From a bacterium (GTDB taxonomy: Bacteria > Patescibacteriota > Minisyncoccia > Phycocordibacterales > SBAW01), in assembly GCA_037139975.1 (NCBI GenBank), contig JBAXFJ010000001.1, forward strand, positions 171,017 through 235,016: DNA of 64,000 nt. The letters are read 5' to 3'. Shown in pieces: positions 1,174-63,070 of this stretch; position 1 is the stretch's first letter; each line of letters begins with the position of its first letter. Made by a program: the position numbers and the translations under genes. The notes beneath the pieces were generated by a model. The model had not been told where the DNA came from. It made no database searches and worked only from the letters and a program-made list of their open reading frames with translations.

Positions 1174-2319
1174 TTATGCTGCTACTTCCTCTGCTTCACT
1201 CTTTTCTTCTTTAACCTCCGTCGGTTTTTCAGGTTGATTCGACTGGATATCAATCCTCCAACCGGTCAGTTTCGCTGCGAGGCGCACATTTTGACCACCG
1301 CGGCCAATGGCGAGACTTTGCTGGTCGCTCGCAACGGTAACGCTTGCTTTGTGCTCCGTCTCGTCCAGCTCGATGCTTAAAATGCGCGCAGGAGAAAGGG
1401 CTTCTTCGATAAAGTGCTTTGGATCTTCATTCCACTCGATGATGTCGATTTTCTCGCCACCAAGCTCTGAGGTGACCGTCGAGACACGCACACCGCGCTG
1501 CCCCACGAGCGAGCCAACAGGGTCCACGTGCGGGTCGCTTGAGGCGACGGCAACTTTTGATCGAGATCCTGCCTCACGCGCGGTGGCCTTAAAAGTCACG
1601 ACGCCGTTCGCGACTTCAGGCACTTCCATCTCAAAGAGTTTGACCAAAAATTCAGGCTGGGCGCGTGAGAGGCGCAGGTAGATGCCTTTTGCGCTCTCTT
1701 CCACTTGAAAGAGCACGGCGCGCACGCGCTCGCCTTGGCGATAGCGCTCGCCCGGGATTTGCTCGTCATAGGGCAAAATGCCTGTTGCGCGGCCAAGGTC
1801 AATAAAGATGTTGCCACGCTCCATGCGCTGCACGGTTCCGCTCACAATTTCACCTTGGCGTTTGCCAAACTCGGCCACTACAGATACTTTTTCGGCTTCG
1901 CGTATCTTTTGGATAATAACTTGTTTTGCGGTTTGGGCCGCGATGCGGCCGTAGTCATCCTTTGCTTCAAGGGCAAAGACGAGTTCATCGCCCACCTTGG
2001 CGTCACGTTTGATAAACTTGGCATCGCTCAGCAAGATGTGCTGCTCGGGGTTGAAATGGGTGCGGTCTTCGCCTTCTTTTATATCACTCTCGTCAAAATA
2101 GACGGTGCTTTCGTCAGCAACTTCTTTTATTTGTTCAAATTCGGTCGTGCCAGCACTCAAATCAATTTGAGCACGGATAATCTGCCCGCGTTTTGCATAT
2201 TCTTTTTTATAGGCGGTGGCGAGTGCTGCTTCGATAGCTTCGATAACTTTGGCTTTTGGGATACCGCGTTCTTCTTCGAGCTCGGTCAACACCGAATTCA
2301 TAACTTTGAGGTCAAACAT
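1174..2319 (-). CDS. nusA: transcription termination/antitermination factor NusA
   Basis: 381 aa; NusA N-domain, S1 domain and two KH domains (GRGGQNVRLAAKLTGWRIDI). Confidence 0.9.
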   Translation of the reverse strand: MFDLKVMNSVLTELEEERGIPKAKVIEAIEAALATAYKKEYAKRGQIIRAQIDLSAGTTEFEQIKEVADESTVYFDESDIKEGEDRTHFNPEQHILLSDAKFIKRDAKVGDELVFALEAKDDYGRIAAQTAKQVIIQKIREAEKVSVVAEFGKRQGEIVSGTVQRMERGNIFIDLGRATGILPYDEQIPGERYRQGERVRAVLFQVEESAKGIYLRLSRAQPEFLVKLFEMEVPEVANGVVTFKATAREAGSRSKVAVASSDPHVDPVGSLVGQRGVRVSTVTSELGGEKIDIIEWNEDPKHFIEEALSPARILSIELDETEHKASVTVASDQQSLAIGRGGQNVRLAAKLTGWRIDIQSNQPEKPTEVKEEKSEAEEVAA

Positions 2320-2444
2320 ACGTCTATATTGTTAGTTTTTAGAGGCACATGAGTGCTGTCTAGCTTCTTATAAAATAAGAAAACCACCCACTCGGGGCGG
2401 CGTACCAGACGCTTGAATAATAGCCAAAGGAGTGGGAAAAGTCA

Positions 2445-5400
2445 ATGTTGTTGGATGTTGTATATAAAGCCGCTCTTCTTTTTTGTGTTCCTGGCCTGGT
2501 GCGCTCTAGGGCGCGTTATCCACACAAAAGTTTTTCTTACGCGTTTGCATACGCAAAGAGTGCTAGGATTTGGGTAATGCGTACACGCACTACATTTCTA
2601 CTTCTTGCTTTTTTCCTTGTGATTGGTTTTTCATCTTTATTTACAAATCAAGGAAGGGGGATAGGTGCCGCTTTGTATAGCGGTCTCATTGAAACCCACA
2701 TTGCGCAAGCTGCTGGCAGTGTCACAAACGATGCTGGCAATACGTGGACCAACTATTGTTATGGTCTCATTGAAGATGAGATGTGCACCGTTAGTCCGCT
2801 GGCTTGGGAAAACTGGGAAACATGCAACGCTGACGGCACCATCACTGCTAATGTTGGCTGGAATTATGTGGGGGTGCCACAAGGTAGTGGTGGTTGGTAT
2901 CTGCAGTTGAATTCTGGGGACTTGCCTGTCTCTGGCAATTTAGGTGTTGCAGACAATCACACTTTCGCAGGACTTTCGCCTAATCGATCATACAATATTT
3001 ATTTTGATGTTTTTCTTGGTCCGCGTTGGAACTCAGGCTGGTGGGCTACCGATAATTTTCCTGGTGGTGCAGCCTACAGAAACCATCTCAACACTGGCCC
3101 TTGTGTTTCCTCTCCCACAGGCTCCATCAGCAGCCTCACCAACCCCTGCCAAATAGCCAGCGGCCAAACCACCTGCACGCCGCTCTTTAACTGGAACACA
3201 GCAAACACCAACGGCACAGTCGTAACCAATATTGTCGGTAGTGCGCCATATGCCGACGAGACAGCCTATACTTGGTATATTCCTGCTAACGGTTCTGGCG
3301 GGCACGGTGCCGCGCTTCCTGCTGGTAATTACACTATTAAGTTATATGGACAAAATTCGGCTGGCGGCTGGGTGCTTCTTGATTCAAAGCCGACTACGGT
3401 TGTTTCAGCCCCAACAGGCACACTCACCACCCCAAGCTCCTGTTATATTCCGAGCGGTCAGACTACGTGCACACCGCTCTTTGATTGGCAAACCGCGCAA
3501 ACCAATGGCGTAGTTCAGCTTAATATCGTCAATGCAAACGGCGCTCAGCCGTATCCCACCGAATCGTTGTACGTCGCCAACCGAGGCACCGCAATCACTG
3601 GTACTCCTGGTACGGCGCTTCCTGTTGGTACCTATACCGTTAAGTTGTACGGCCAAAATTCAGCAGGCACCTGGGTGCTTCTTGACTCTAAGCAGGTCAC
3701 GATTGTTCCTTTCCCAACCGCAACTCTCTCCGTTTCTCCAACCTCGGTTGCATACAACGGTCAAGCAACACTCACTTGGAGTTCAACCAACGCCACCTCC
3801 TGCACCGCAGGGGGGCCGTGGTCTAACGCAAGCGCCCCGCTTGGGGGTACTGGATCGACGGGGGCGCTTATTGCAAATGCTACGTATACGCTCCAATGTA
3901 CGGGTCCTGGAGGTACCACACCGCTCCAGTCGGTGACGGTTTCGATCAATAACCGAACTCCTGCGGGGTATCTGGATTCTGCCAGCTGTTCGGCTTTGAG
4001 TGGTTGGGTAGTGGATCCAGACAGCGCCAACAGCATCGCGAGTGTGCGTATCTTCGACGGCCCTTCGAGCACAGGCACACTCATTGGCACGTACCCCACA
4101 AGCGTGTTCCGAGGTGACGTTACCGAACCGAACACAGGCATTGCTGGTCTTGTTGCTGGCAATCATGGATTCTCTGTGCCAACGCCGGCAAGCCTCCTCG
4201 GGGGCGCGACTCACAGCATCTATGCTTATGGGGTGGACATTCAAACGGGCGGATTGACGAATTTGGGCTCGAGTCCAAAAAGTATCACCTGCCCGACCCC
4301 AACCGCAACTCTCTCCGTTTCTCCAACCTCAATTGCATACAACGGCCAAGCAACACTCACTTGGAGCTCAACTAACGCCACCTCCTGCACCGCAGGGGGG
4401 CCGTGGTCTAACGCAAGCGCACCGCTTGGGGGTAGTGGATCGACGGGGGCGCTTATTGCAAACGCGACGTATACGCTCCAATGTACGGGCAATGGCCAAA
4501 CATCTGCACTGCAGTCAGTGACGGTTGGGGTGGGAGCCGCTCCGGTAAATGGTGTGTGTGCTGCAACACACTACAGCTGTAGTGCTGGTACGAGTGCTAC
4601 TACTGTGGAAGGAGCAAGCACCTACACGTGGAGTTGTGTTGGCCTTAACGCGGGGACCACCGCCTCGTGTTCCGAGGCGAAGCCAGCGCCAACCGCAACG
4701 CTCGCTGTTTCTCCAACCTCGGTTGCATACAACGGTCAAGCAACACTCACTTGGAGTTCAACCAACGCCACCTCCTGCACCGCAGGGGGGCCGTGGTCTA
4801 ACGCAAGCGCCCCGCTTGGGGGTACTGGATCGACGGGGGCGCTTATTGCAAACGCGACGTATACGCTCCAATGTACGGGAAATGGTCAAACGTCCGCGCT
4901 CCAGTCAGTGACGGTTACCACGAGTCCTCCCCTGTCTTGTACTTCACTGTGGGGCGGTGCAGCCATCGCCAATGGCGACTCCGTGACCGCATATCACACA
5001 GCTTCGACCATCTATCCTGCCACCTGCGCCCAAGAAACGCGTGCTTGCGGCAACGGAGTATTGAGTGGAAGTTACACAAACCAGACGTGCGCGGTCTTGC
5101 AGCCTGATCTCATCGCCTCCACCGTCATCCCAAACACTGCGGTGGCTGGTAGCGCTGTCACGCTCTCTGCAACCGTCACTAACCGAGGCACCGCAAGCAC
5201 TGGCGCAAGCTTCTCGAACTTCTTCCAAGTCGCCACTGCCACAAACGGTGGCGGCACAGTCACCGACCTCGCTCCCGCAGTGATGTCTGCACTTGCGGCA
5301 AATGCATCAGGCGCCACAGCGAAGCCCTACACCTTCACCACCGCAGGCACCTACTCGGTCCGCGCCTGTGCTGACAAGTCTTCTGCTACTGACCTTGGCG

Positions 5401-7784
5401 CCATCGCCGAGTCAGATGAAACCAACAACTGTGGGACATGGACTAATGTAGTGGTTACCGCTGCTCCTGCGTCTGACCTCACCACCTCAGCTGCCCAACC
5501 AACCGCAGCGGTAGTTGGCAACGCTGTCACGCTCTCTGCAACCGTCACTAACCGAGGCACCGCAAGCACTGGCGCAAGCTTCTCGAACTTCTTCCAAGTC
5601 GCCACTGCCACAAACGGTGGCGGCACAGTCACAGACCTTGCTCCTGCGGTGATGTCTGCACTTGCGGCAAATGCATCAGGCGCCACAGCCAAGTCTTACA
5701 CCTTTACTGCTGCAGGCACCTACTCGGTCCGCGCCTGTGCCGATAAGTCTTCTTCTGCGGACCCTGGCGCCATCGCCGAGTCAGACGAAACCAACAACTG
5801 TGGGACATGGACTGATGTAGTGATTGATTATCCTGGAGCAACCTCTGCCCTGCATGGGCAAGGGTGTGTGCTCCCTGTGGGGGGAGGCACATGCAACCTC
5901 ACTGCATGGTGGAGCATCACCGGTCTTACTGCAGGTGAGACGGTTGACGTGAGTGTCACGGGGCCTGGTCTTGCAATACGCACCTTTAAAAATATTCCTG
6001 CAGACTCAACCAAACTCACTCGCGCAACACGCAGAAGTCTTCTTGCTGCGGTGCTGGGTGGTTTTGGCGCTACTCAAGATTCGACAACACCTTTTATCCA
6101 GGCAGTTGGCACTGCAGGGACGTTCAATCTGACACTTACCCGGCACGCCAACCAATCTGCACTAGGTTCGTTTGCACTCTTTGCTTGTCCTCCAGGAACA
6201 ACTAATGTCAACGAAGTTTGCACAGGCGCTCCTGACTTGATAGCGGGTGCCACAGTGCCAACTGCTGCGGTTGCAGGCATCATCACCACGCTTTCGGGAG
6301 TGATCACCAACCAGGGCGGCGCAAGCACCGGCACTACGTTCACGAGCCTGTTTGAAATAAACTCCAACAACAATCCAACAAGTTTCCATAGTATTGAAGC
6401 AACCCAGACCTACGTCACCCCTGCACTTGCGGTGGGTGGTACAAACACCGCAACAACGCCTTACAGTTTCCCCGCGTCTGGTACCTACTATGTGCGCCTC
6501 TGTGCAGACACAAACGACAGCAATGTGGGTACCATCACCGAAGCAAACGCTTTGGGTACTGGTGAGACCAACAACTGCGGCCCTTGGACCCCTGTGATTG
6601 TGACCGCTCCTGACCTGATTGCGGGCGGCGCTTCTCCGGTGTCGGCGACCGCTGGCGCGTCCATATTCCTCAGTGCACCAATCTCCAACCAAGGCACCGC
6701 AGACGTCACTCAAAACTTCTCTAACTTCTTTCAGGTGGCGGTTGATGTGAACGATGCCACCACCATTACCGATCTTGCTCCTACCACCATGACTCCCTTG
6801 TCAAAAGGCGCTACACGACTTGCAGCACGACCATATTCATTTGGAGCAGGCACCTACTACGTCCGTGTGTGTGCCGACAAAACGTCACGCAACGATGGGG
6901 GAGTAATCACCGAGTCAAATGCTACCGACGCATCCTCGATTGATACAGGCGAGACCAACAACTGCGGCAGCTGGGCAAAGACGGTGGTGTGCGCGGCGGG
7001 CAAAGTCTATTTTGGCGGCTCGTGTCTCTTTACTCCACCAGGGTGTCCTCTTGATACAGTGAATGATGCTGGGCTGTGTTGCCCAGTGGGACAGGTCAAT
7101 GGTGGTGGTGTATGCGTTCCTTCATGCACAAACGACTATGTGCTTGTGAATAACCAGTGCGTACCCGCGGTATGTTCTGGCACTACCTCGTGTGTTTCGG
7201 GTCCAAACATCTGCGGTATGACGAACCCAGGCACCTATGACCCAGCCACGTGCACGTGCGTTGCCACACCGCCTGCAGATTCTTTGTGCCATATATGCAC
7301 ACCAAACGCCGCGTGTGCCGCAAGTGCTGCAAACAACTGTGGTTCAAGTAGCGGTACTTGCAATGCGGCAGGCAGCTTCTGCGCTCCACCCGCAGACAAC
7401 GTGTCGTGTTCTGTGGGGGCGGTCTGTAACCCAGGACAAGTGGGCACGCCGCCAAACTGCAGCTACCCTGGTTCTACTGGTTCAGTAAATGGTTCAACTT
7501 TCGCTCCAACAATCACACTAAACGCACCTGCGCGTGTTCGTGCGGGAGGCACTGCAACGCTCACGTGGTCTGCAACGGGCTCTACTCAATGTGTTCTGAC
7601 AGGTCCCCACCTGCCAAGTGCGACGGTTACAGTAACTGGTGATGCAAACAGCAATGTTGCAAGTCAACAAGTCGCCGCGACTATCCTGGGACAAAGTGTA
7701 TACACAGTCAGGTGCTCAGGCCTTGGAGGCTCTGTTTCAGTGAGCAGGACGGTAAACCTTATTCCGCAAGTCATCGAACAATAA
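2445..7784 (+). CDS. giant secreted surface protein with CARDB-like and Ig-like tandem repeats and a Cys-rich C-terminal region (adhesin-like)
   Basis: 1779 aa. A signal/TM segment (MRTRTTFLLLAFFLVIGFSSLF) suggests the real start may be the ATG at 2577. Contains 2 N-terminal ~95-aa repeats, 3 (+1 C-terminal) Ig-like 'ATLTWSSTNATSCTAGGPW...YTLQCTG' modules, 4 CARDB-type modules (NRGTASTG...ESDETNNCG) and a ~150-aa cysteine-rich block. Gly/Thr/Ser/Asn-rich composition. Confidence 0.85.
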   Translation: MLLDVVYKAALLFCVPGLVRSRARYPHKSFSYAFAYAKSARIWVMRTRTTFLLLAFFLVIGFSSLFTNQGRGIGAALYSGLIETHIAQAAGSVTNDAGNTWTNYCYGLIEDEMCTVSPLAWENWETCNADGTITANVGWNYVGVPQGSGGWYLQLNSGDLPVSGNLGVADNHTFAGLSPNRSYNIYFDVFLGPRWNSGWWATDNFPGGAAYRNHLNTGPCVSSPTGSISSLTNPCQIASGQTTCTPLFNWNTANTNGTVVTNIVGSAPYADETAYTWYIPANGSGGHGAALPAGNYTIKLYGQNSAGGWVLLDSKPTTVVSAPTGTLTTPSSCYIPSGQTTCTPLFDWQTAQTNGVVQLNIVNANGAQPYPTESLYVANRGTAITGTPGTALPVGTYTVKLYGQNSAGTWVLLDSKQVTIVPFPTATLSVSPTSVAYNGQATLTWSSTNATSCTAGGPWSNASAPLGGTGSTGALIANATYTLQCTGPGGTTPLQSVTVSINNRTPAGYLDSASCSALSGWVVDPDSANSIASVRIFDGPSSTGTLIGTYPTSVFRGDVTEPNTGIAGLVAGNHGFSVPTPASLLGGATHSIYAYGVDIQTGGLTNLGSSPKSITCPTPTATLSVSPTSIAYNGQATLTWSSTNATSCTAGGPWSNASAPLGGSGSTGALIANATYTLQCTGNGQTSALQSVTVGVGAAPVNGVCAATHYSCSAGTSATTVEGASTYTWSCVGLNAGTTASCSEAKPAPTATLAVSPTSVAYNGQATLTWSSTNATSCTAGGPWSNASAPLGGTGSTGALIANATYTLQCTGNGQTSALQSVTVTTSPPLSCTSLWGGAAIANGDSVTAYHTASTIYPATCAQETRACGNGVLSGSYTNQTCAVLQPDLIASTVIPNTAVAGSAVTLSATVTNRGTASTGASFSNFFQVATATNGGGTVTDLAPAVMSALAANASGATAKPYTFTTAGTYSVRACADKSSATDLGAIAESDETNNCGTWTNVVVTAAPASDLTTSAAQPTAAVVGNAVTLSATVTNRGTASTGASFSNFFQVATATNGGGTVTDLAPAVMSALAANASGATAKSYTFTAAGTYSVRACADKSSSADPGAIAESDETNNCGTWTDVVIDYPGATSALHGQGCVLPVGGGTCNLTAWWSITGLTAGETVDVSVTGPGLAIRTFKNIPADSTKLTRATRRSLLAAVLGGFGATQDSTTPFIQAVGTAGTFNLTLTRHANQSALGSFALFACPPGTTNVNEVCTGAPDLIAGATVPTAAVAGIITTLSGVITNQGGASTGTTFTSLFEINSNNNPTSFHSIEATQTYVTPALAVGGTNTATTPYSFPASGTYYVRLCADTNDSNVGTITEANALGTGETNNCGPWTPVIVTAPDLIAGGASPVSATAGASIFLSAPISNQGTADVTQNFSNFFQVAVDVNDATTITDLAPTTMTPLSKGATRLAARPYSFGAGTYYVRVCADKTSRNDGGVITESNATDASSIDTGETNNCGSWAKTVVCAAGKVYFGGSCLFTPPGCPLDTVNDAGLCCPVGQVNGGGVCVPSCTNDYVLVNNQCVPAVCSGTTSCVSGPNICGMTNPGTYDPATCTCVATPPADSLCHICTPNAACAASAANNCGSSSGTCNAAGSFCAPPADNVSCSVGAVCNPGQVGTPPNCSYPGSTGSVNGSTFAPTITLNAPARVRAGGTATLTWSATGSTQCVLTGPHLPSATVTVTGDANSNVASQQVAATILGQSVYTVRCSGLGGSVSVSRTVNLIPQVIEQ
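3713..4915 (+). repeat. three near-identical ~225-bp intragenic direct repeats (about 3713-3940, 4295-4525, 4685-4915)
   Basis: Nucleotide copies beginning ccaaccgcaactctctccgtttctccaacctc... are almost identical at DNA level with irregular spacing (582 and 390 bp). They encode the Ig-like PTATLSVSPTS...LQCTG module. Confidence 0.85.
5095..5820 (+). repeat. two tandem near-identical ~360-bp copies of the CARDB-module coding sequence (about 5095-5460 and 5461-5820), followed by two diverged copies (about 6230-6990)
   Basis: The string ctgtcacgctctctgcaaccgtcactaaccgaggcaccgcaagcactggcgcaagcttctcgaacttcttccaagtcgccactgccacaaacggtggcggcacagtcac occurs in both copies. Confidence 0.85.
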
Positions 7785-7851
7785 TAAATTAGGGTGTTTT
7801 GTGTGCGAATGTGCAAAGAAAAAAGAAGCACGCGTAGTATACTGAAGTGGT

Positions 7852-9564
7852 ATGCAGGCGCATGAGGAAAGTCTTGCCACATTTTTACGTGACGCGGGGA
7901 TGGTGTCGCGCTCGCAGTTGGAGTCGCTTGTGCGGCGAGTGACGGTCTCGGGCGAAGCGTTTCACCACGTGCTTTCCACTTCAGGCGCGCTCAGTGAAGA
8001 CGAGGTGCGTCGCGCACTTTCAAAAGTGCTTGGAGTGCCTTTTGTCTCACTTACTACAGAATCGATCTCGCCGGAGGCGTTGGTGCATATACCCGAACCT
8101 TTTGCACGGTCTCATGGTGTGGTTGCATACCAGATGCACCGCGAGCGCGGCGTTCCTGGAGGGATCCTCCTTGAGGTTGCGTTGCTTGATATGGATGCGC
8201 ATGCGTCACTGCAGCAGCTCGACTTGCCCTACACGGTGCGCGTGCGTCTCACCGACAGGGCGTCGCTCACTCGTGCATTGCTGCTCTATCAAAAGGTGCT
8301 CAAAGATTCTTTTTCGTCTCAGGCGCAGGAGCCGCTTGCAGTGGTGGATGCATTGCTCGAACGAGGTCTTTACAGCAAGGCCGAAGCGATTCATCTGTCG
8401 CCAACCGAGAATGGTTTTTTGGCGCACTACCGTATTGGTGGTGAATTGTATGAAGCACTAACGCTCTCGTTTGAGGTTGGGCAAGTTGTGTTGCAAAGAG
8501 TTGCTACGCTTGCGCATGTGATTGTTGGCACACAAACCCCTCAAGAAGGCAGTTTCAAAATCGCTGCAGGGGATGAAGAAGTGTCTGTTCGTGCCTCGCT
8601 GCTCCCGACTGTGGCGGGCGATGCGCTCACCCTGCATCTGTTACGTGCGGGAGTGGGTGCTGCGGGGCACACGCTCGAGTCTCTTGGTTTTCATGGCGCA
8701 GGACTTGCGCGCCTGAGGCATGCGCTTCATGCCCGTTCCGGGTTGGTGCTGGTTTCTGGGGGCGACCATGCTGGCGTCACCACACTTCTCTATACACTGC
8801 TTGATACGCTTGGTGGGTATACGCACACTACCATCACCGTTGAGGGTGGTGTGTCAGTACGCCTTCCCTATGCGCTGCAAACTGAAGCAGGGGGTGATGG
8901 CGGTGTATCAATGGCGACAGGGGTCCGTGCAGCGCTCTTGCAAGACCCTGACGTGCTCATGATTTCTCAGATTGCTGATCGAGAAACCGCCTTGCTTGCG
9001 GTCTCTGCTGCGCAGAGGGGTGTTTTAGTAGTTGCGGGGGTTGCTGCCACATCAGCTTCGGTTGGTATTGCCAACCTTCTGTCCTTGGGCGTTTCTTCGA
9101 CCATGTTGGCGAGCTCTCTTGCAGTGTCTGTGGGGACGAACTTGGTGCGGGCGCTGTGTCCGGCGTGCAAGAGCGGCGCCGAAGCATATAAGTTGTCGCG
9201 TGCCGAAATGGCTTCGCTGGAAGGCGAGGTAGATTTCAGTCGCATATTGTCTGCGCTGAAGGAGACGCGCAGTGTAACAGAAGACGCGCCGTGGAAGACA
9301 GTATCTTTTATACATCCCAACACGTGTGATGCGTGCCAAGATGGGTACCAAGGGTACTGCGGTGTGCAAGAAGTGTTTGTGTCTTCGCGTGCGATACAAC
9401 AGAGTGTTGTTGCATATGCTGCATATCCAGACGATGCGGTGTTCGCATATGCGATAGAAACAGCCGCTCGAGCCGATGGGGCGATCACCCTGATTGAAGA
9501 CGGTGTATACAAGGCAGCCCAAGGCCGTACGAGCCTAGAGGAGGTGCTTTCGCTCGAAGCGTAG
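7852..9564 (+). CDS. PilB/GspE-family (type II/IV secretion 'ATPase') paralog with degenerate catalytic motifs; predicted pseudo-ATPase
   Basis: 570 aa. GspE_N-like N-domain, a conserved core (RASLLPTVAGDALTLHLL; ITVEGGVSVRLPY) and a C-terminal tetracysteine CPAC...CDAC motif. Walker A reads GGDHAGVTT (Lys->Val), Walker B/Asp box reads DPDVLMISQIAD (Glu->Gln), and the His box reads RGVLVVAGVAATSA (His lost). Confidence 0.75.
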   Translation: MQAHEESLATFLRDAGMVSRSQLESLVRRVTVSGEAFHHVLSTSGALSEDEVRRALSKVLGVPFVSLTTESISPEALVHIPEPFARSHGVVAYQMHRERGVPGGILLEVALLDMDAHASLQQLDLPYTVRVRLTDRASLTRALLLYQKVLKDSFSSQAQEPLAVVDALLERGLYSKAEAIHLSPTENGFLAHYRIGGELYEALTLSFEVGQVVLQRVATLAHVIVGTQTPQEGSFKIAAGDEEVSVRASLLPTVAGDALTLHLLRAGVGAAGHTLESLGFHGAGLARLRHALHARSGLVLVSGGDHAGVTTLLYTLLDTLGGYTHTTITVEGGVSVRLPYALQTEAGGDGGVSMATGVRAALLQDPDVLMISQIADRETALLAVSAAQRGVLVVAGVAATSASVGIANLLSLGVSSTMLASSLAVSVGTNLVRALCPACKSGAEAYKLSRAEMASLEGEVDFSRILSALKETRSVTEDAPWKTVSFIHPNTCDACQDGYQGYCGVQEVFVSSRAIQQSVVAYAAYPDDAVFAYAIETAARADGAITLIEDGVYKAAQGRTSLEEVLSLEA

Positions 9565-46442: not shown

Positions 46443-47378
46443 TTACGCGTGCACAGTGATAGGAATAACGCGTCGCCTGTGGCGTAACACGCCAAGGCTA
46501 GCAAGCCCAACCGCGAGCAGAGTGAGCGAGGTCGGTTCTGGTGCACTTGCTCGTGTTTGTTCTGGCCAGAAGGTGATTCCACCTACGCCATTCAACCCAT
46601 CGGCGCTGTTCGCAAAGAGTGAACCGACGCCGGATTGATTAAATACTTCGATGGTGCTGCTCCCTTGATTCGCTGCGTACAGATTGCTGGCCGTATCGAA
46701 AGCAAGCCCAAACGGTCCGTCTACGCTGGTGCTTGCAAACACCGATTCAACTCCGGCGGGGGTAACTTTCAAGATAAGGTTGCGGCTGTGGTCTGCGACA
46801 TAGAGGTTGCCAGCTGCATCGAAGGCAAGACCTATTGGTTGTGAGTTTGGTATTGTGACAAACACCGATGCAGCACCGCCAGGCGTATACCTTTCAATTT
46901 TGTTTCCACCAACACTTGCGGCATAAAGGTTGCCACTAGCATCGAACGCAAGGTATGTGGGTGAACTCACCCCCACATTCGCGAAGACCGAACCAACCCC
47001 GCCCGGTGTGAACTTCTCAATGGTGTTGCCAATGTAGTTCGCCACGAACAGGTTGCCAGCAGTATCGAAAGCTAAACCATACGGCCCAGACAACCCAGTA
47101 TTTGCGAAGACCGAACCAACCCCGCTCGGGGTGAACTTGTCGATGGTGTTGTTGCCGAAGTTTGTTACATACAGGTTCCCAGCGCTGTCGAAAGCGACGT
47201 CGTGGGGGTTGTTCAACCCTGAATTGATGAAGGTTGAGCATACCCCTGCGGGCACACTGCATCTTTCAATTGTGTTGTTGCCCGAGTTGGCTACAAAAAC
47301 GTTGACCAGAGTCGCTCGCGCGTCTGCCAGTCCAAGTAGATAGACAATCGCCAGAATGGCGATGATGATCTTCTGCAT
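46443..47378 (-). CDS. secreted NHL-repeat beta-propeller protein with PEP-CTERM-like C-terminal sorting tail
   Basis: The track ORF extends to 47450; the likely start is MQKIIIAILAIVYLLGLADA (signal peptide). Six NHL-type repeats (GxxxPxGLAFDxxGNLYVAN). C-terminus APEPTSLTLLAVGLASLGVLRHRRR. Confidence 0.7.
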   Translation of the reverse strand: MQKIIIAILAIVYLLGLADARATLVNVFVANSGNNTIERCSVPAGVCSTFINSGLNNPHDVAFDSAGNLYVTNFGNNTIDKFTPSGVGSVFANTGLSGPYGLAFDTAGNLFVANYIGNTIEKFTPGGVGSVFANVGVSSPTYLAFDASGNLYAASVGGNKIERYTPGGAASVFVTIPNSQPIGLAFDAAGNLYVADHSRNLILKVTPAGVESVFASTSVDGPFGLAFDTASNLYAANQGSSTIEVFNQSGVGSLFANSADGLNGVGGITFWPEQTRASAPEPTSLTLLAVGLASLGVLRHRRRVIPITVHA

Positions 47379-47560
47379 TTTCCACCTCTTACTCTTAATG
47401 ATGTAACCGCCCAACGCCGGATGACGCTGGGCTGACTGTTCAAACCTCATTATATATCAAAACAGCACTTCTGTCAAACTAGGAAAAAATAAAAACAGCT
47501 CTCCAATAAAGGGGATAAACAAGGGCGGCACAAATCATCGCGCCGCCTTCACCATTTGTG

Positions 47561-51918: not shown

Positions 51919-52980
51919 TTAGTCGGGCAGGCCGTTCATGACAAGAAAGTTGACGAGTCCGGCCTTGCCTTCGTCTTGATTGCCAAAAAACATAGGCTCA
52001 ACCACGTCTGGATTGTAGCTGTTACGCGTGAGCACCGTGTTGAAGGCAAAGCCGTGTGCGCCGAGCGTAAGGTATTCATAGGCGTCTCTGCCAGATTCGA
52101 TACCGCCCACGGCGATGAGCTTCAGTCCCGTATCTATTATCATCGGCGCGATAGTCAGAATGCCGCCACAGATGAGCGGCCGCAGTCCGCGCCCACTCAA
52201 GCCACCGCGGATCATTGGGATTGCTGGCTTGCCCTGCTTGTTGGTTATGTAGCAGTTTGCCTGCGTGTTCGCATAAACCACATAGTCTATCCCGTAATCG
52301 ATACACGGTTGCACCAACTGTTCGAGCAAGCCTGGGTCGGTAATCGGGGCAATCTTTACTTTCGTTTTCAGGGTGCCGGCACCTTCCTTGAGTGCTGCGA
52401 CTCCTTCACGATAGAGTGGCGGGTCGAAACAGACCACCGACTTGCGCTTCCCACCGGATTCTTGATTGCCGCAGGAAAAGTTCCCTTCGACGCCGTCTGC
52501 GGACTGGGTGATCTGCAAGATGTTCGCCATGTCGCAGTAGTCACGCGGGTTATAGGGGTTGTTCGCGCGACCCGATACGCTGACCCAGAATTGCGAACCT
52601 TTCCCGTTCACCTTTTGACGAAGATCGGACAATCCATCGTCCATATGCGCATCGATTCCTTTGTCGGGGATGCCCAACGCATTGATTGCGTTCCCCGTAA
52701 CTTCGTTGTAGTTGAAGTTGTCGCCCGGGTTTCCATCCCACGGGTGTGGCATGATGGACCCAAAGGTGACGTGTGGCATGCTTGCTTGCGCATACTGCAT
52801 CATCGTTTTGGCATCTTTGCCCGAGCCTGCAGCGTTTCCCCACGGCACCTCTTTCAGTAGATATTCAAGCGCGGTGGCCTCATTCGCAAACGTACGCATT
52901 AGCACTGCTCCTAGTTTGGTTGTTGCACCTGTCGTCCACACATCAACATATCCTACTTTTTCAAAAAGAAAAGGCCGCAT
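51919..52980 (-). CDS. pyrD: dihydroorotate dehydrogenase-family flavoenzyme (class 1-like)
   Basis: 353 aa; NAAGSGKD (substrate loop), NFSCGN (NxSCPN analogue) and IAVGGIESGRDAYEYLTLGA (FMN-binding GG...G.DA). Confidence 0.7.
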   Translation of the reverse strand: MRPFLFEKVGYVDVWTTGATTKLGAVLMRTFANEATALEYLLKEVPWGNAAGSGKDAKTMMQYAQASMPHVTFGSIMPHPWDGNPGDNFNYNEVTGNAINALGIPDKGIDAHMDDGLSDLRQKVNGKGSQFWVSVSGRANNPYNPRDYCDMANILQITQSADGVEGNFSCGNQESGGKRKSVVCFDPPLYREGVAALKEGAGTLKTKVKIAPITDPGLLEQLVQPCIDYGIDYVVYANTQANCYITNKQGKPAIPMIRGGLSGRGLRPLICGGILTIAPMIIDTGLKLIAVGGIESGRDAYEYLTLGAHGFAFNTVLTRNSYNPDVVEPMFFGNQDEGKAGLVNFLVMNGLPD

Positions 52981-53690: not shown

Positions 53691-53761
53691 GACCCCGGCT
53701 CGCGGTCTCGCCTGCTGGCTCGACATCGCTACGCCTTTCTCGTCCTGCCACTGCTACGCAG

Positions 53762-53834
53762 TGGGCGCGCTAGGACTCGAACCTAGAACCGCCGAGGTAT
53801 AAGCTCGGTGCACTAACCATTGTGCTACGCGCCC
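53762..53834 (-). tRNA. tRNA-Ile, apparent anticodon UAU
   Basis: Reverse complement gggcgcg-ta-gcac-aatggtta-gtgc-a-ccgag-cttatac-ctcgg-cggtt-ctagg-ttcgagt-cctag-cgcgccc-a folds as a canonical 73-nt cloverleaf. The anticodon loop cuUAUac has U33 and A37. CCA is not encoded. Confidence 0.75.
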
Positions 53835-60957: not shown

Positions 60958-60992
60958 AATAACAGAGTTTTTTCGCGAGGGGTTGGTTTTTG

Positions 60993-61079
60993 CGGAGAGA
61001 GCGAGATTCGAACTCGCGGGCCTAATTAAAAGCCGACAGTTTAGTAAACTGTTGATTTAAACCACTCATCCATCTCTCC
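60993..61079 (-). tRNA. class-II (long variable arm, G73) tRNA, Ser-like, apparent anticodon ACU (unusual)
   Basis: Reverse complement ggagaga-tg-gat-gagtggtttaa-atc-a-acagt-ttactaa-actgt-cggcttttaattaggcccg-gcgag-ttcgaat-ctcgc-tctctcc-g. Good acceptor, T and D arms; the 5-bp anticodon stem is perfect and the loop reads uuACUaa. Confidence 0.55.
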
Positions 61080-61102: not shown

Positions 61103-62785
61103 CTACAGCATCACTCGCATAAAAGTAAAAAAAGTAGTACGGTACATAGCGTACGCTAGGGCGGAGTGCACAGTAGAGAATAGTGTACGGAGACGTGTCA
61201 GAGTGGTCGAATGTGCCTCCTTGCTAAGGAGGTAGGGCGCAAGCCCTCGTGGGTTCGAATCCCACCGTCTCCGCCAAAAAACGAAATCGGATTTTAGAGC
61301 CGAAATGGGGTCGCGCCGAAGGCGCGACACTAATGCATTCCCCCCGCCGAATTCAGAATCCAAAAGGGTTTTCCACGCTCCGCGTGGCTCAAAAAGTACG
61401 GTTCGATCTAAAATTTTAAAGTTCGAACCGACTTTTTTGAATTCCCGAAGTATTTCTTCGGGAATTCCCTCGTTTGCCAATTCCGTATTGGTAATATTGG
61501 CTTTTAGAAATTTTTCTGTAAGTTCGAACCGATTATTCGCTTTTTGTTCAAAAGATGATAATTTTTCTTTGAAAAGCTGTTTTTGGTTTACCAACTGATT
61601 TTTCGTTTCTCGATATTCTTCAAGTGATAACGAATTATCGAGATAGAGTGTCATCAGCTTTTCAATCTTTTTTTCGGTTGAAAAAATTTCATCTTTTGTA
61701 TTTTGAACAAAAAGGGTAGACGATTGGACTTCCGATTGCCGATCTTTTGAATTTTCGGCAATCATCCATTTTGTCCAATCGTCTGGCAAAGAAACTTTTT
61801 TGATTTCATTTTGAATTTGAGAAGTGATGAGCTCCTCACGAATATACGGTTGAGCACAGGGATTTTTCCGTTTGGTACATCGCAAATAGTTATGACCTTT
61901 TTGTTGTTCGGTAGTAATAAAACATCCACATTCTCCGCAATGGAAAAATCCACGATAGATGTATGGCTTAAGTCCTTTGCTATGCGGTTTAGATTTTCTC
62001 ATCATCACTTCTTGAACGGAATCAAAAAGTTTCTTTGAAATAATCGGTTCGTGCTTTCCTTCGTGGATTTCACCACCATACCGAAGCAATCCGCAAAAAA
62101 TCGGATTTTTTAACATATTATGAATATTGGAAATAGAAAGTTCTTGCTCTTTCCTTGAACGCAGTCCAAGTTCATTAACCATGTCTCTAACTTGTCGGAG
62201 TGTGTACTTGCCACTTGCGTAGGCCTCAAACGCTCTCACGATATATGGCGAGCGTTCGGGGTCTGGAACGATAACTTTCTTATCACTATCGTTTAGATAG
62301 CCCACAGGAGCGTTTTGAGGCCAAATACCATCCTTCAATTTTTGACGATGACCACGCTTAATATTCTCCGACAAATTATCCACATAATACTTGGACTGCG
62401 AAAATGCTATTGAGAGCATGAACTTTCCTTGTGGTGTTGGATCAAACCAAAAAGTTGAAAATTTCAAATCCAAAATTATTTTGGTATCAACAAGGTAAAT
62501 AATTTTACCACCGTCTACGGAATTTCTCGCAAGTCTATCGGGGTGCCACGCTAAAATTCCATTTGCCTCACCAGCTTCCATGCGGAGAAGCATTTCATTA
62601 AAGACTGGCCGACCCGGAATCTTGGCGGTTTGTTTTTCCACGAAAATATCTACAACCTCAATTTGTTCTTTAACCGCCAACTCTTTGAGTTCGGCCAGTT
62701 GATCCGAAATGCTTCTCACTTGCCGATCTTTGTCATCGGTAGACTTGCGAGTATATATAAAAAACTTTTTGGTTTGATTATTCAT
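61103..62785 (-). CDS. large serine recombinase (resolvase/integrase family); C-terminal ~95 codons are read-through of IR-L and tRNA-Ser, and the true 3' end is uncertain
   Basis: N-terminal resolvase catalytic domain IYTRKSTDDKDRQ...SISDQ (Ser nucleophile), recombinase domain and zinc-ribbon (C..C...C..C), then a coiled-coil. There is no in-frame stop until 61103, so the annotated end is an artefact or the gene is disrupted. Local AT-richness relative to its surroundings. Confidence 0.75.
   Translation of the reverse strand: MNNQTKKFFIYTRKSTDDKDRQVRSISDQLAELKELAVKEQIEVVDIFVEKQTAKIPGRPVFNEMLLRMEAGEANGILAWHPDRLARNSVDGGKIIYLVDTKIILDLKFSTFWFDPTPQGKFMLSIAFSQSKYYVDNLSENIKRGHRQKLKDGIWPQNAPVGYLNDSDKKVIVPDPERSPYIVRAFEAYASGKYTLRQVRDMVNELGLRSRKEQELSISNIHNMLKNPIFCGLLRYGGEIHEGKHEPIISKKLFDSVQEVMMRKSKPHSKGLKPYIYRGFFHCGECGCFITTEQQKGHNYLRCTKRKNPCAQPYIREELITSQIQNEIKKVSLPDDWTKWMIAENSKDRQSEVQSSTLFVQNTKDEIFSTEKKIEKLMTLYLDNSLSLEEYRETKNQLVNQKQLFKEKLSSFEQKANNRFELTEKFLKANITNTELANEGIPEEILREFKKVGSNFKILDRTVLFEPRGAWKTLLDSEFGGGNALVSRLRRDPISALKSDFVFWRRRWDSNPRGLAPYLLSKEAHSTTLTRLRTLFSTVHSALAYAMYRTTFFTFMRVML
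61189..61276 (+). tRNA. tRNA-Ser (anticodon GCU), CCA encoded
   Basis: ggagacg-tg-tcagagtggtcgaa...cctcc-ttGCTaa-ggagg, long variable arm, gtgggttcgaatcccac T-arm, cgtctcc-g-cca. Confidence 0.85.
61271..61390. repeat. IR-L: 120-bp terminal inverted repeat that starts inside the 3' end (CCGCCA) of tRNA-Ser
   Basis: A perfect reverse complement of 62951-63070; contains an internal hairpin ggggtcgcgcc-gaag-ggcgcgac. Confidence 0.85.
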
Positions 62786-62950
62786 AGTATGTTTAAAAAC
62801 CTAAAAGGGCGACCATGTTGCACCAACTTTACCTTTCAGCAAAATTGAACACAGTCGCCCGTCTAGATGCTCAAGCAAATAAAAAGCTGAAAGTGTCTAA
62901 AGTTGGTGCAATCCAATATTACCATTTTTTATTTTGTATTGGCAAACGAG

Positions 62951-63070
62951 GAGCCACGCGGAGCGTGGAAAACCCTTTTGGATTCTGAATTCGGCGGGGG
63001 GAATGCATTAGTGTCGCGCCTTCGGCGCGACCCCATTTCGGCTCTAAAATCCGATTTCGTTTTTTGGCGG
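62951..63070. repeat. IR-R: 120-bp terminal inverted repeat
   Basis: gagccacgcggagcgtggaaaaccc...ccgatttcgttttttggcgg is the exact reverse complement of IR-L. Confidence 0.85.

Follow-up and report, generated by a model that had tools for sequence, protein, structure and literature searches.

A modular CARDB/Ig-like surface protein with internal repeats and a conserved C-terminal module in a Paceibacteria bacterium

The longest gene in the 64-kb window (the whole stretch of DNA analysed here) encodes a real exported protein of 1,735-1,779 residues. As a fibrous surface protein it is of an ordinary type, and its chief notable feature is a conserved and undescribed C-terminal module and tail. 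The explanation regarded as probable is that a Paceibacteria bacterium exports it through Sec as a fibre on the cell surface, shaped by module duplication and occasional intragenic gene conversion. Its N-terminal helix would either anchor the protein in the membrane or be cleaved, and the remainder would form a disulfide-stabilised Ig/FN3-like chain of ~15 modules (three A, three B, C, U, four CARDB and two small Cys knots), with a Cys-rich hairpin stalk and the conserved terminal Ig-like module as its distal end. Such a chain would probably extend tens of nanometres beyond the cell, for contact or adhesion. The protein would have grown by internal duplication of modules, with B1-B3 and CARDB1/2 held similar by both purifying selection and occasional conversion within the gene; the same homology could alter module number, which would explain the range from 359 to 1779 aa in related genomes. 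Host recognition and attachment by CPR/Patescibacteria are largely obscure, apart from the type IV pili of a few Saccharibacteria in culture, and this locus provides one lineage-specific surface fibril analysed in full, with its modules, their duplication, their sequence exchange and its conserved part.

The coding sequence is a single open reading frame on the forward strand, at 2445-7784 including the stop (TAATAA), and encodes 1779 aa. Two start codons are possible, because Shine-Dalgarno-like sites precede each: AAGGAG at 2427-2432 lies before the start at 2445, and AGGA at ~2564 before the internal ATG at 2577 (M45), from which NCBI annotates a 1735-aa protein (MEI7719765.1) under the label 'CARDB domain-containing protein', also used by JGI. 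The preliminary description, which had singled this out as the largest gene in the window (5.3 kb) with a signal or transmembrane segment, was correct on both counts. The sole clear hydrophobic helix spans aa 49-67 (2589-2645, forward strand), with a FLLLAFFLVIGFSSLF core after MRTRTT and a Kyte-Doolittle maximum of 2.07 at aa 49. It is a Sec signal or signal-anchor, the positively charged stretch and the 16-19 aa hydrophobic core being of the kind found in Sec-exported surface proteins; no AxA cleavage site is evident, and it could serve either as a membrane anchor or as a cleaved signal. The only other hydrophobic window, at aa 1265-1287 inside CARDB3, is not convincing as a transmembrane segment, and the hydropathy scan found none at the C-terminus. 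Two or four of the 61 cysteines in the protein fall in nearly every module, with the partner cysteine of CARDB4 just past its assigned boundary, and such even counts are what an extracytoplasmic protein would be expected to show.

The modules, all on the forward strand, begin with three of A type (2742-3707): the divergent A0 (2742-3104), A1 (3105-3404) and A2 (3405-3707). A1 and A2 share ~57% amino-acid identity in self-comparison, A0 scores above 999 of 1000 shuffles against the A profile, and Cys pairs occur in each; weak Pfam matches to the Ig-like FlgD_ig, Y_Y_Y and Kre9 were also found for the A type. The B modules are Ig-like units of ~80 aa with one Cys pair, lying at 3708-3947 (B1), 4293-4532 (B2) and 4683-4922 (B3). 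Between them lie the C module (3948-4292), with the signature GW.D.D ... G.HGF ... H, and the mini-module x (4533-4682; 50 aa, four Cys), which has a 67% identical copy in P0049; B3 is followed by the mini-module y (4923-5099; 59 aa, four Cys), with a 57% identical copy in P0061. CARDB1 (5100-5468) and CARDB2 (5469-5837) follow one another in exact tandem, the period being 369 nt, and are 35-50% identical to CARDB3 (6225-6599) and CARDB4 (6600-6962). The two pairs are separated by U (5838-6224), an unclassified module of 129 aa with four Cys, which had no homologues in the hit set and no Pfam match; its assignment as a fourth A-type module was rejected, as 92 of 1000 shuffles score equally well. 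The chain ends with the Cys-rich block (6963-7505), which includes the conserved Cys knot C..C..N.CGMTN.G..C.C..PP.DS.C (7173-7289), and the terminal Ig-like module B4 (7506-7781), with the C-terminal tail IPQVIEQ at 7761-7781.

Pfam CARDB (PF07705) matches four stretches (E 2.9e-30), its score of 104.9 bits exceeding the cut-off of 22.7, and covers only ~28% of the protein. No Pfam model matched the other modules, for which ten separate segments gave weak Ig-like hints at E<=5 (FlgD_ig, Y_Y_Y, Kre9, Big_7). Searches of the PDB by sequence, with the whole protein and with a C-module profile, returned zero matches, and no ligand-binding domain was identified in the protein; A0, U and most of the Cys-rich block lack homologues or a confident structure. 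No full-length homologue emerged, whether the whole protein or its last 275 aa served as query; for the latter, a word-index search gave two matches and a full HMMER search was also made, which found no homologues of the Cys-rich block outside the conserved knot. The B type is widespread, with 1050 HSPs in 119 other proteins, and B1-B3 belong to an 80-aa module family homologous to the modelled terminal module. AlphaFold models the terminal module at pLDDT 95-98, with Ig-like Foldseek matches that include SoxY/SoxZ, and the C module as a confident beta-sandwich resembling Ig and FN3 domains; Ig, FN3, Bap and Lap are the structural neighbours of both, which are hence predicted to be Ig/FN3-like beta-sandwiches. 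The picture drawn beforehand, of a modular CARDB/Ig-repeat surface protein with cysteines and a final Ig-like module, is thus borne out by the four CARDB domains and the terminal model. The block that had been credited with more than 30 cysteines contains 23, in aa 1507-1672 (166 aa), and was modelled as short beta-hairpins at pLDDT 70-90, with aa 1619-1658 below 50; mostly orphan and partly of low confidence, it does not sustain the suggestion of a disulfide-rich binding domain.

Similarity between the repeats is far beyond chance. Identity among the B copies is 87.5-90% across 240 nt, and 90-93% over a 228-nt core (3714-3941, 4299-4526 and 4689-4916), while CARDB1 and CARDB2 are 86.7% identical over 369 nt, and 92% over a 324-nt core. 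Tandem Repeats Finder reported nothing for 2000-8200; the repeats are either interspersed (B) or present in only two copies (CARDB1/2), and no further copies occur outside the gene in the 64 kb. Both sets had been called near-identical, which overstates their likeness; the perfect tandem of the CARDB pair stands, whereas the B copies, described as ~225-bp modules, are interspersed. Overall dS between copies is ~0.17-0.28 and dN/dS ~0.1-0.3. With an average dS of ~0.25, the duplications are not recent, contrary to the recent amplification first proposed, and only the conversion tracts would be. Two such putative tracts were located on the forward strand, each with zero differences. Firstly, 146 nt are shared by B1 (3732-3877) and B3 (4707-4852), with a permutation p<1e-5, and p=1e-5 at third codon positions. 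Secondly, 111 nt are shared by CARDB1 (5153-5263) and CARDB2 (5522-5632), with p<1e-5 in the run test and p=0.003 at third codon positions; dS is 0 in this tract, versus 0.32-0.63 in the portions of the unit beside it. The B copies additionally form a three-block mosaic, with the pairing 12|3 at sites 6-24, 13|2 at sites 39-143 and 23|1 at sites 171-214. These patterns, in one short-read assembly, indicate intragenic gene conversion acting on older duplications, in agreement with the homologous exchange between copies that the preliminary description had raised; the antigenic variation it mentioned may be a consequence. Differences between the copies are not biased towards adenine, and no template copy lies outside the gene in the 64 kb; on these two grounds a diversity-generating retroelement target was rejected.

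It is unlikely that the copy number, order, perfect tracts and mosaic arose wholly or partly as an artefact of short-read metagenome assembly. The source organism was seen in one sample only, and the independent Logan assembly of SRR12676966, in which the gene flanks are identical, breaks off at window position 3742, 10 nt inside B1, and picks up again at 5660 in CARDB2. The internal stretch 3743-5659 is supported by one short-read assembly, the perfect tracts of 146 and 111 nt exceed common k-mer sizes, and bulge collapsing by the assembler could inflate identity between copies. However, the 5.3-kb reading frame remains open through all repeats; the variants from which the mosaic is read lie <55 nt apart, and are hence linked by single k-mers or reads; and differences between B1 and B2 persist where B1 equals B3, meaning variants were not generally collapsed. 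On grounds of graph topology, the unique C and x modules between the B copies would also force the given path, provided that each is single-copy. Intragenic conversion on older duplications is the preferred reading of the repeats, although module copy number is a lower bound, because the independent assembly breaks at the repeats, and the same caution applies to module number in any such gene from short-read metagenome-assembled genomes.

The host genome is placed in the Paceibacteria (CPR/Patescibacteria) by protein similarity, its NusA being 80-90% identical to Candidatus Paceibacterota/Patescibacteria proteins. Close relatives lack the surface-protein gene, whose size varies, and a scan of genome contigs found only distant Saccharibacteria and Nomurabacteria relatives. 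The C module, CARDB, the knot and the terminal module recur in positional homologues of 613 aa, 927 aa and, at a fourth locus (L016), ~359 aa; the knot is conserved in L005p, P0242, P0077 and others. Hence the size variation anticipated for this protein holds between species. In each case the gene holds the equivalent position, with nothing between it and the start of a downstream PilB-like ATPase gene of the T2SSE family, which in the window lies at 7852-9564 on the forward strand.

This neighbourhood raises the alternative that the protein works with the adjacent ATPase: a type IV pilus-like machine would display or export it, or share its regulation, and it would not be an independent Sec-dependent fibril. 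Type IV pili mediate episymbiosis in cultured Saccharibacteria (PMC9894109, PMC12206443), and the order of tail-bearing homologue, T2SSE ATPase, TIM and PGK recurs on the same strand in four loci (the window, L005, L009 and L016), with gaps before the ATPase of 67, 30, 17 and 0 nt, respectively, and no terminator-like site in the 67-nt gap of the window. However, TIM-PGK synteny is common to all four, so the link to the ATPase may be the inherited gene order of one clade; one relative keeps ATPase-TIM-PGK but lacks the surface-protein gene, and the tail-bearing genes of L010 and L040 are located elsewhere. Among metagenome loci with the terminal module, the ATPase was found at only 1 of 19, a weak comparison, as most have <1.5 kb of downstream sequence. 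The protein also has no class III prepilin signal (G/[FM]T[LI][IL]E) in its first 90 aa, on which ground a type IV pilin or pseudopilin was rejected. A working partnership with the ATPase is consequently judged improbable, and a family-wide link is unsupported outside the one clade.

A structural role in the envelope, as an S-layer-type protein instead of an adhesin, is distinctly unlikely. CARDB/Ig-like chains are also present in S-layer and envelope proteins, the Deinococcus HPI S-layer is listed by Foldseek among the Ig-like matches at rank 39, and an NCBIfam search, while giving nothing significant, included a non-significant match to a 'putative S-layer protein' model (E 0.47). Against this, neither an SLH nor another wall-binding domain was found in the Pfam or NCBIfam searches, absence from close relatives and variable size would be unusual for an essential lattice protein, and the single-chain fibril architecture resembles Bap/Lap-type adhesins. 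An adhesin function is what the fold and architecture would suggest for the fibre-like protein favoured here. A sortase-anchored LPxTG protein was rejected: nothing but LPVSG at aa 160 approaches the LPxTG motif, and the C-terminus, which reads ...NLIPQVIEQ, has neither a hydrophobic segment nor a basic tail.

The C-terminal Ig module, ending "…VNLIPxFxEx-COOH", is common to this protein and its positional homologues. The tail family was defined here by a last module that is Ig-like with C...C and W, and ends V-N-[LIV]-[LIV]-P-x-x-x-E-x-COOH, a description that fits the 1779-aa protein, and the family is absent from Pfam and NCBIfam. In the alignment of terminal modules (A3), both C residues and the E are invariant, with P and W conserved in >90%. 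In the ~45 proteins where the module with its tail was seen, it forms the extreme C-terminus without exception, and the tail motif had 54 C-terminal versus 0 internal instances among 1655 module instances; 20 of the 67 matches to a degenerate DNA pattern for the tail were true members. It is a tentative and rather doubtful suggestion that the terminal module and invariant tail (...VN-L-I-P-x-F-x-E-x-COOH) constitute an undescribed sorting, attachment or docking signal of secreted Patescibacteria proteins. This reading arises because the module is always the last element, the proteins that bear it have a signal peptide at the N-terminus, one locus often contains several of these genes, the ATPase lies directly downstream in this clade, and a YcaO/dehydrogenase pair lies within ~6 kb in four other lineages. 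The window itself has no YcaO. Were it true, the system would have the 1779-aa protein as its largest known cargo. The C-terminal cassette allows a test of whether CPR bacteria have a surface-display signal of their own, and the conserved part as a whole, comprising the C-terminal knot and the terminal Ig module with its fixed tail, offers a searchable handle for the family in metagenomes.

The tail resembles LPxTG, PEP-CTERM-type tags and the C-terminal domains (CTDs) of T9SS in being a conserved element found strictly at the C-terminus of signal-peptide-bearing proteins, but neither a transmembrane helix nor a basic tail follows the motif. The terminal module, an Ig-like sandwich of ~85 aa, is like T9SS CTDs and SoxY, yet the likeness to SoxY is generic (TM 0.58, 19% identity), the GGCGG arm being absent, and the host lies outside the Bacteroidota, the only phylum in which T9SS use is known. 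As a fibril of tandem Ig-like modules, the protein is comparable to Bap, Lap extender repeats, Alp/Rib and SasG/Aap adhesins, with which it also shares DNA-similar repeats and the potential for recombination-driven length change. The repeats of these adhesins are often nearly 100% identical, in long tandem arrays with demonstrated copy-number variation, whereas here only 2-3 copies are found, 87-93% identical, with the B copies interspersed and Tandem Repeats Finder empty, and an Alp/Rib-like identical-tandem-repeat adhesin was rejected; the T1SS signals and LPxTG/sortase anchors of such adhesins were likewise not found in the protein. With respect to the CARDB family, four domains exceed the gathering threshold, and the remaining modules have no Pfam model. 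The closest parallels in CPR are the large membrane proteins with adhesion domains encoded by these genomes, exemplified by the ten longest proteins of Vampirococcus lugosii, of 1392-4163 aa (PMC8080830). Large surface proteins, as expected beforehand, are thus documented in CPR bacteria, although 1779 aa is large and not giant by literature standards. Both cases combine a CPR host, a length >1,300 aa, a predicted membrane or surface location and adhesion-type beta-sandwich chains; they differ in lineage, Paceibacteria here versus Absconditabacteria for V. lugosii, and are set apart by domain content, CARDB and the unnamed A, B and C modules here versus DUF11, PKD, integrin, FN3 and WD40 there. 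A role in host contact is proposed for both.

The surface-protein gene is a single unbroken open reading frame (2445-7784, + strand; 1779 aa), the longest within 64 kb, as the preliminary description had stated. Two gene callers differ on its start: in ENA the gene is called from 2445 (1779 aa), and the identical NCBI protein (MEI7719765.1, 'MAG: CARDB domain-containing protein [bacterium]') begins at the internal ATG at 2577 (M45, 1735 aa), with a plausible ribosome-binding site before each candidate. Starting at 2445 adds 44 residues, and with them a second hydrophobic stretch (aa 1-19) ahead of the signal helix. A Kyte-Doolittle scan of the whole protein recovered the signal or transmembrane segment already proposed, as the one strongly hydrophobic stretch (aa 49-67), which has the core FLLLAFFLVIGFSSLF with MRTRTT ahead of it, and found none comparable at the C-terminus. 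The product shows the features of an exported protein; it is neither an LPxTG protein, having no LPxTG-type motif near its end, nor a pilin, as no prepilin signal was found in it.

Self-comparison, Pfam and cysteine counts place the modules in the order: transmembrane helix; A0, A1, A2; B1, C, B2, x, B3, y; CARDB1, CARDB2, U, CARDB3, CARDB4; a Cys-rich block; and a terminal B-like module. This is a CARDB-domain protein, as first read: Pfam recognises four CARDB domains (104.9 bits) and no others, with weak FlgD_ig and Y_Y_Y Ig-like hints over A0-A2. Nearly every module contains two or four cysteines, the partner of that in CARDB4 lying just over its assigned boundary, a pattern consistent with a disulfide-bonded protein located outside the cytoplasm. 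The Cys-rich block, at aa 1507-1672, has 23 cysteines, rather than the more than 30 originally counted. The B module is a widespread 80-aa repeat, with 1050 HSPs spread over 119 proteins of several phyla, and it alone accounted for 119/119 top matches to the whole protein. No full-length homologue emerged, either with the whole protein (best coverage 36%) or from a HMMER search of 1.84 billion representatives that used only the last 275 aa as query.

The suggestion that the final module is Ig-like was borne out by an AlphaFold2 model of aa 1500-1779 (26-sequence alignment), in which it forms a beta-sandwich with pLDDT 95-98, and Foldseek returned only Ig-like folds from the PDB. The best matches, to SoxY/SoxZ (E 3e-5, TM 0.58), reflect a generic resemblance. 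The Cys-rich part was modelled as short beta-hairpins (pLDDT 70-90), with a low-confidence gap at aa 1619-1658. The C module was also modelled confidently (pLDDT 89, pTM 0.82; six copies from four proteins), and the protein is therefore a series of Ig/FN3-like sandwiches, the type of chain that makes up stalks in known adhesins. The C module (3948-4292) retains G, W, D, D, G, H, F, P and H invariantly across the six copies, with the signature GW..D.D ... G.HGF ... P ... H; these residues suggest that an otherwise generic FN3/Ig-like fold bears a conserved site for binding or for a metal. In the protein as a whole, neither a catalytic domain nor a recognisable ligand-binding one was found, and no class could be assigned to U, to A0 or to most of the Cys block.

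The repeats described as near-identical are real but more diverged. The three B copies (3714-3941, 4299-4526 and 4689-4916) share 87.5-90% identity over the 240-nt module and 90-93% over a 228-nt core, while CARDB1 and CARDB2 form an exact two-unit tandem of period 369 nt (5100-5468 and 5469-5837), 86.7% identical over 369 nt and 92% over a 324-nt core; Tandem Repeats Finder reported no repeats for the gene. Nei-Gojobori estimates between copies (dS 0.17-0.28, dN 0.02-0.11) argue against the recent amplification initially envisaged, indicating that the copies are not fresh duplicates and are under purifying selection.

The other process envisaged, homologous recombination between modules, was upheld. 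The differences between copies are very unevenly distributed: B1 and B3 match perfectly over 146 nt (3732-3877/4707-4852), and CARDB1 and CARDB2 over 111 nt (5153-5263/5522-5632), runs whose length was reached in 0/100,000 trials permuting the difference positions. With third codon positions alone, the B1-B3 run keeps a permutation p of 1e-5 and the CARDB run one of 0.003. Between the two CARDB units dS is 0 within the 111-nt tract, against 0.63 over the first 18 codons and 0.32 downstream of the tract. Informative sites among the B copies fall into three conflicting blocks (B1=B2 at 6-24, B1=B3 at 39-143, B2=B3 at 171-214). These perfect tracts and this mosaic are the signature of intragenic gene conversion superimposed on older duplications.

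Assembler bulge collapsing could have inflated the perfect tracts; the sites that define the mosaic are separated by under 55 nt, and so directly linked by reads. A 247-kb ENA contig (ERZ4222710 NODE_6, coverage 69) equals the window exactly over the 12.3 kb compared. Two contigs of an independent Logan assembly of SRR12676966 match it at 100%, the first stopping at 3742, 10 nt inside B1, and the second beginning at 5660, within CARDB2; the flanks thus have independent confirmation, and the read graph genuinely branches at the repeats. Module order and number across 3743-5659 come from one short-read assembly, whose path is favoured by graph topology, since any route has to pass through the unique C and x segments, and there may be additional copies of the 975-nt or 369-nt unit. 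Targeting by a diversity-generating retroelement is excluded, as substitutions are not biased towards adenines and the window has no repeat copy outside the gene.

The only lead that merits pursuit is the undescribed terminal module with its tail, for which Pfam and NCBIfam hold no model. C-terminal alignment defined a conserved cassette, present in about 45 collected proteins: a knot, N.CG[MQ]TN.G..C.G.C...PP..S.C, usually followed by a B-type module, and lastly the terminal module, ending ...V-N-[LIV]-[LIV]-P-x-[F/x]-x-E-x-COOH. An alignment of 42 sequences shows two Cys and the Glu without exception, and Pro and Trp above 90%. A module HMM identified 1655 instances in 257 proteins, of which 54 carried the tail, all exactly at the protein end and none internally. 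A degenerate DNA pattern (TVNLIPxxxEx-stop) matched 67 metagenome contigs, 20/67 being true members. Named tail-bearing members are Patescibacteria, and most full-length ones have ordinary signal peptides; a role for the tail in sorting or docking seems improbable. Two loci each carry three genes that end in this terminal module and tail (L010, 4235-15845; L040, 155-6980), so the family forms local arrays. Separately, four independent lineages have a YcaO cyclodehydratase no more than about 6 kb from tail-bearing genes (L009, 1770-3236; L031, 6764-8948; L047, 125-2392; L060, 518-2683), paired in the last three with a dehydrogenase of the nitroreductase family to make a TOMM-like pair; the window has no YcaO.

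The adjoining NusA (1174-2319, - strand) shares 80-90% identity with proteins that carry the labels Candidatus Paceibacterota, Patescibacteria and Adlerbacteria, confirming a CPR host. Relatives keep the backbone PGK-TIM-T2SSE ATPase ... NusA-PPase-trigger factor and vary in the slot between ATPase and NusA. This holds the 1779-aa gene alone in the window, a 927-aa homologue with a RimK-like ATP-grasp and other genes at L005, a 613-aa homologue with a YcaO/2OG-oxygenase island at L009, and, in another relative, TauD and NUDIX without a homologue; in the closest relative by NusA (90%), HicAB adjoins NusA. Hence the protein differs in size between species, its positional homologues having the C module, CARDB, Cys knot and terminal module in common. 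At four loci (the window, L005, L009 and L016) the homologue immediately precedes the PilB-like ATPase, both genes being on one strand and separated by 67, 30, 17 and 0 nt, respectively; no terminator-like site was found in the window's gap. This adjacency may be inherited gene order, because all four share TIM-PGK downstream; the ATPase occurs in 1/19 metagenome loci carrying the terminal module (L016), most of which have little downstream sequence.

Elsewhere in the window, a 560-aa large serine recombinase gene (61103-63070, - strand; Resolvase, Recombinase and Zn ribbon) lies within and overlaps a perfect 120-nt inverted repeat (61271-61390/62951-63070), adjoining tRNA-Ser genes, and GC falls to 0.41-0.46; the region may be an integrated element or invertible segment. 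A 335-aa NHL/beta-propeller protein (46443-47450, - strand) has 123-nt periodic DNA repeats and a PEP-CTERM match (PF07589, 23.9 bits against a 20.7 cut-off), unexpected for a Patescibacteria genome. A 53-nt GC-rich direct repeat (87% identical; 51875-51927/52963-53015) sits on both sides of the dihydroorotate dehydrogenase gene (51919-52980), and a 91-nt inverted repeat (89% complementary; 27292-27382/41939-42029) has arms 14.5 kb apart around a ribosomal-protein region. ARAGORN found tRNA-Ile (TAT; 53761-53834) and tRNA-Ser (ACT; 60992-61079), both with uncommon anticodons.

We propose that the module chain would form a surface fibril, which would putatively mediate contact with a host or substrate and whose length would be changed by homologous exchange between modules. 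If the fibril is anchored by its N-terminus, the conserved cassette at the C-terminus would make up its distal and functional tip. Its closest known counterparts are large membrane proteins of CPR bacteria, as described for Vampirococcus (PMC8080830), and repeat-built adhesins such as Bap and Lap. Alp/Rib-type adhesins, by contrast, carry near-identical repeat arrays, and the repeats of this protein behave otherwise.
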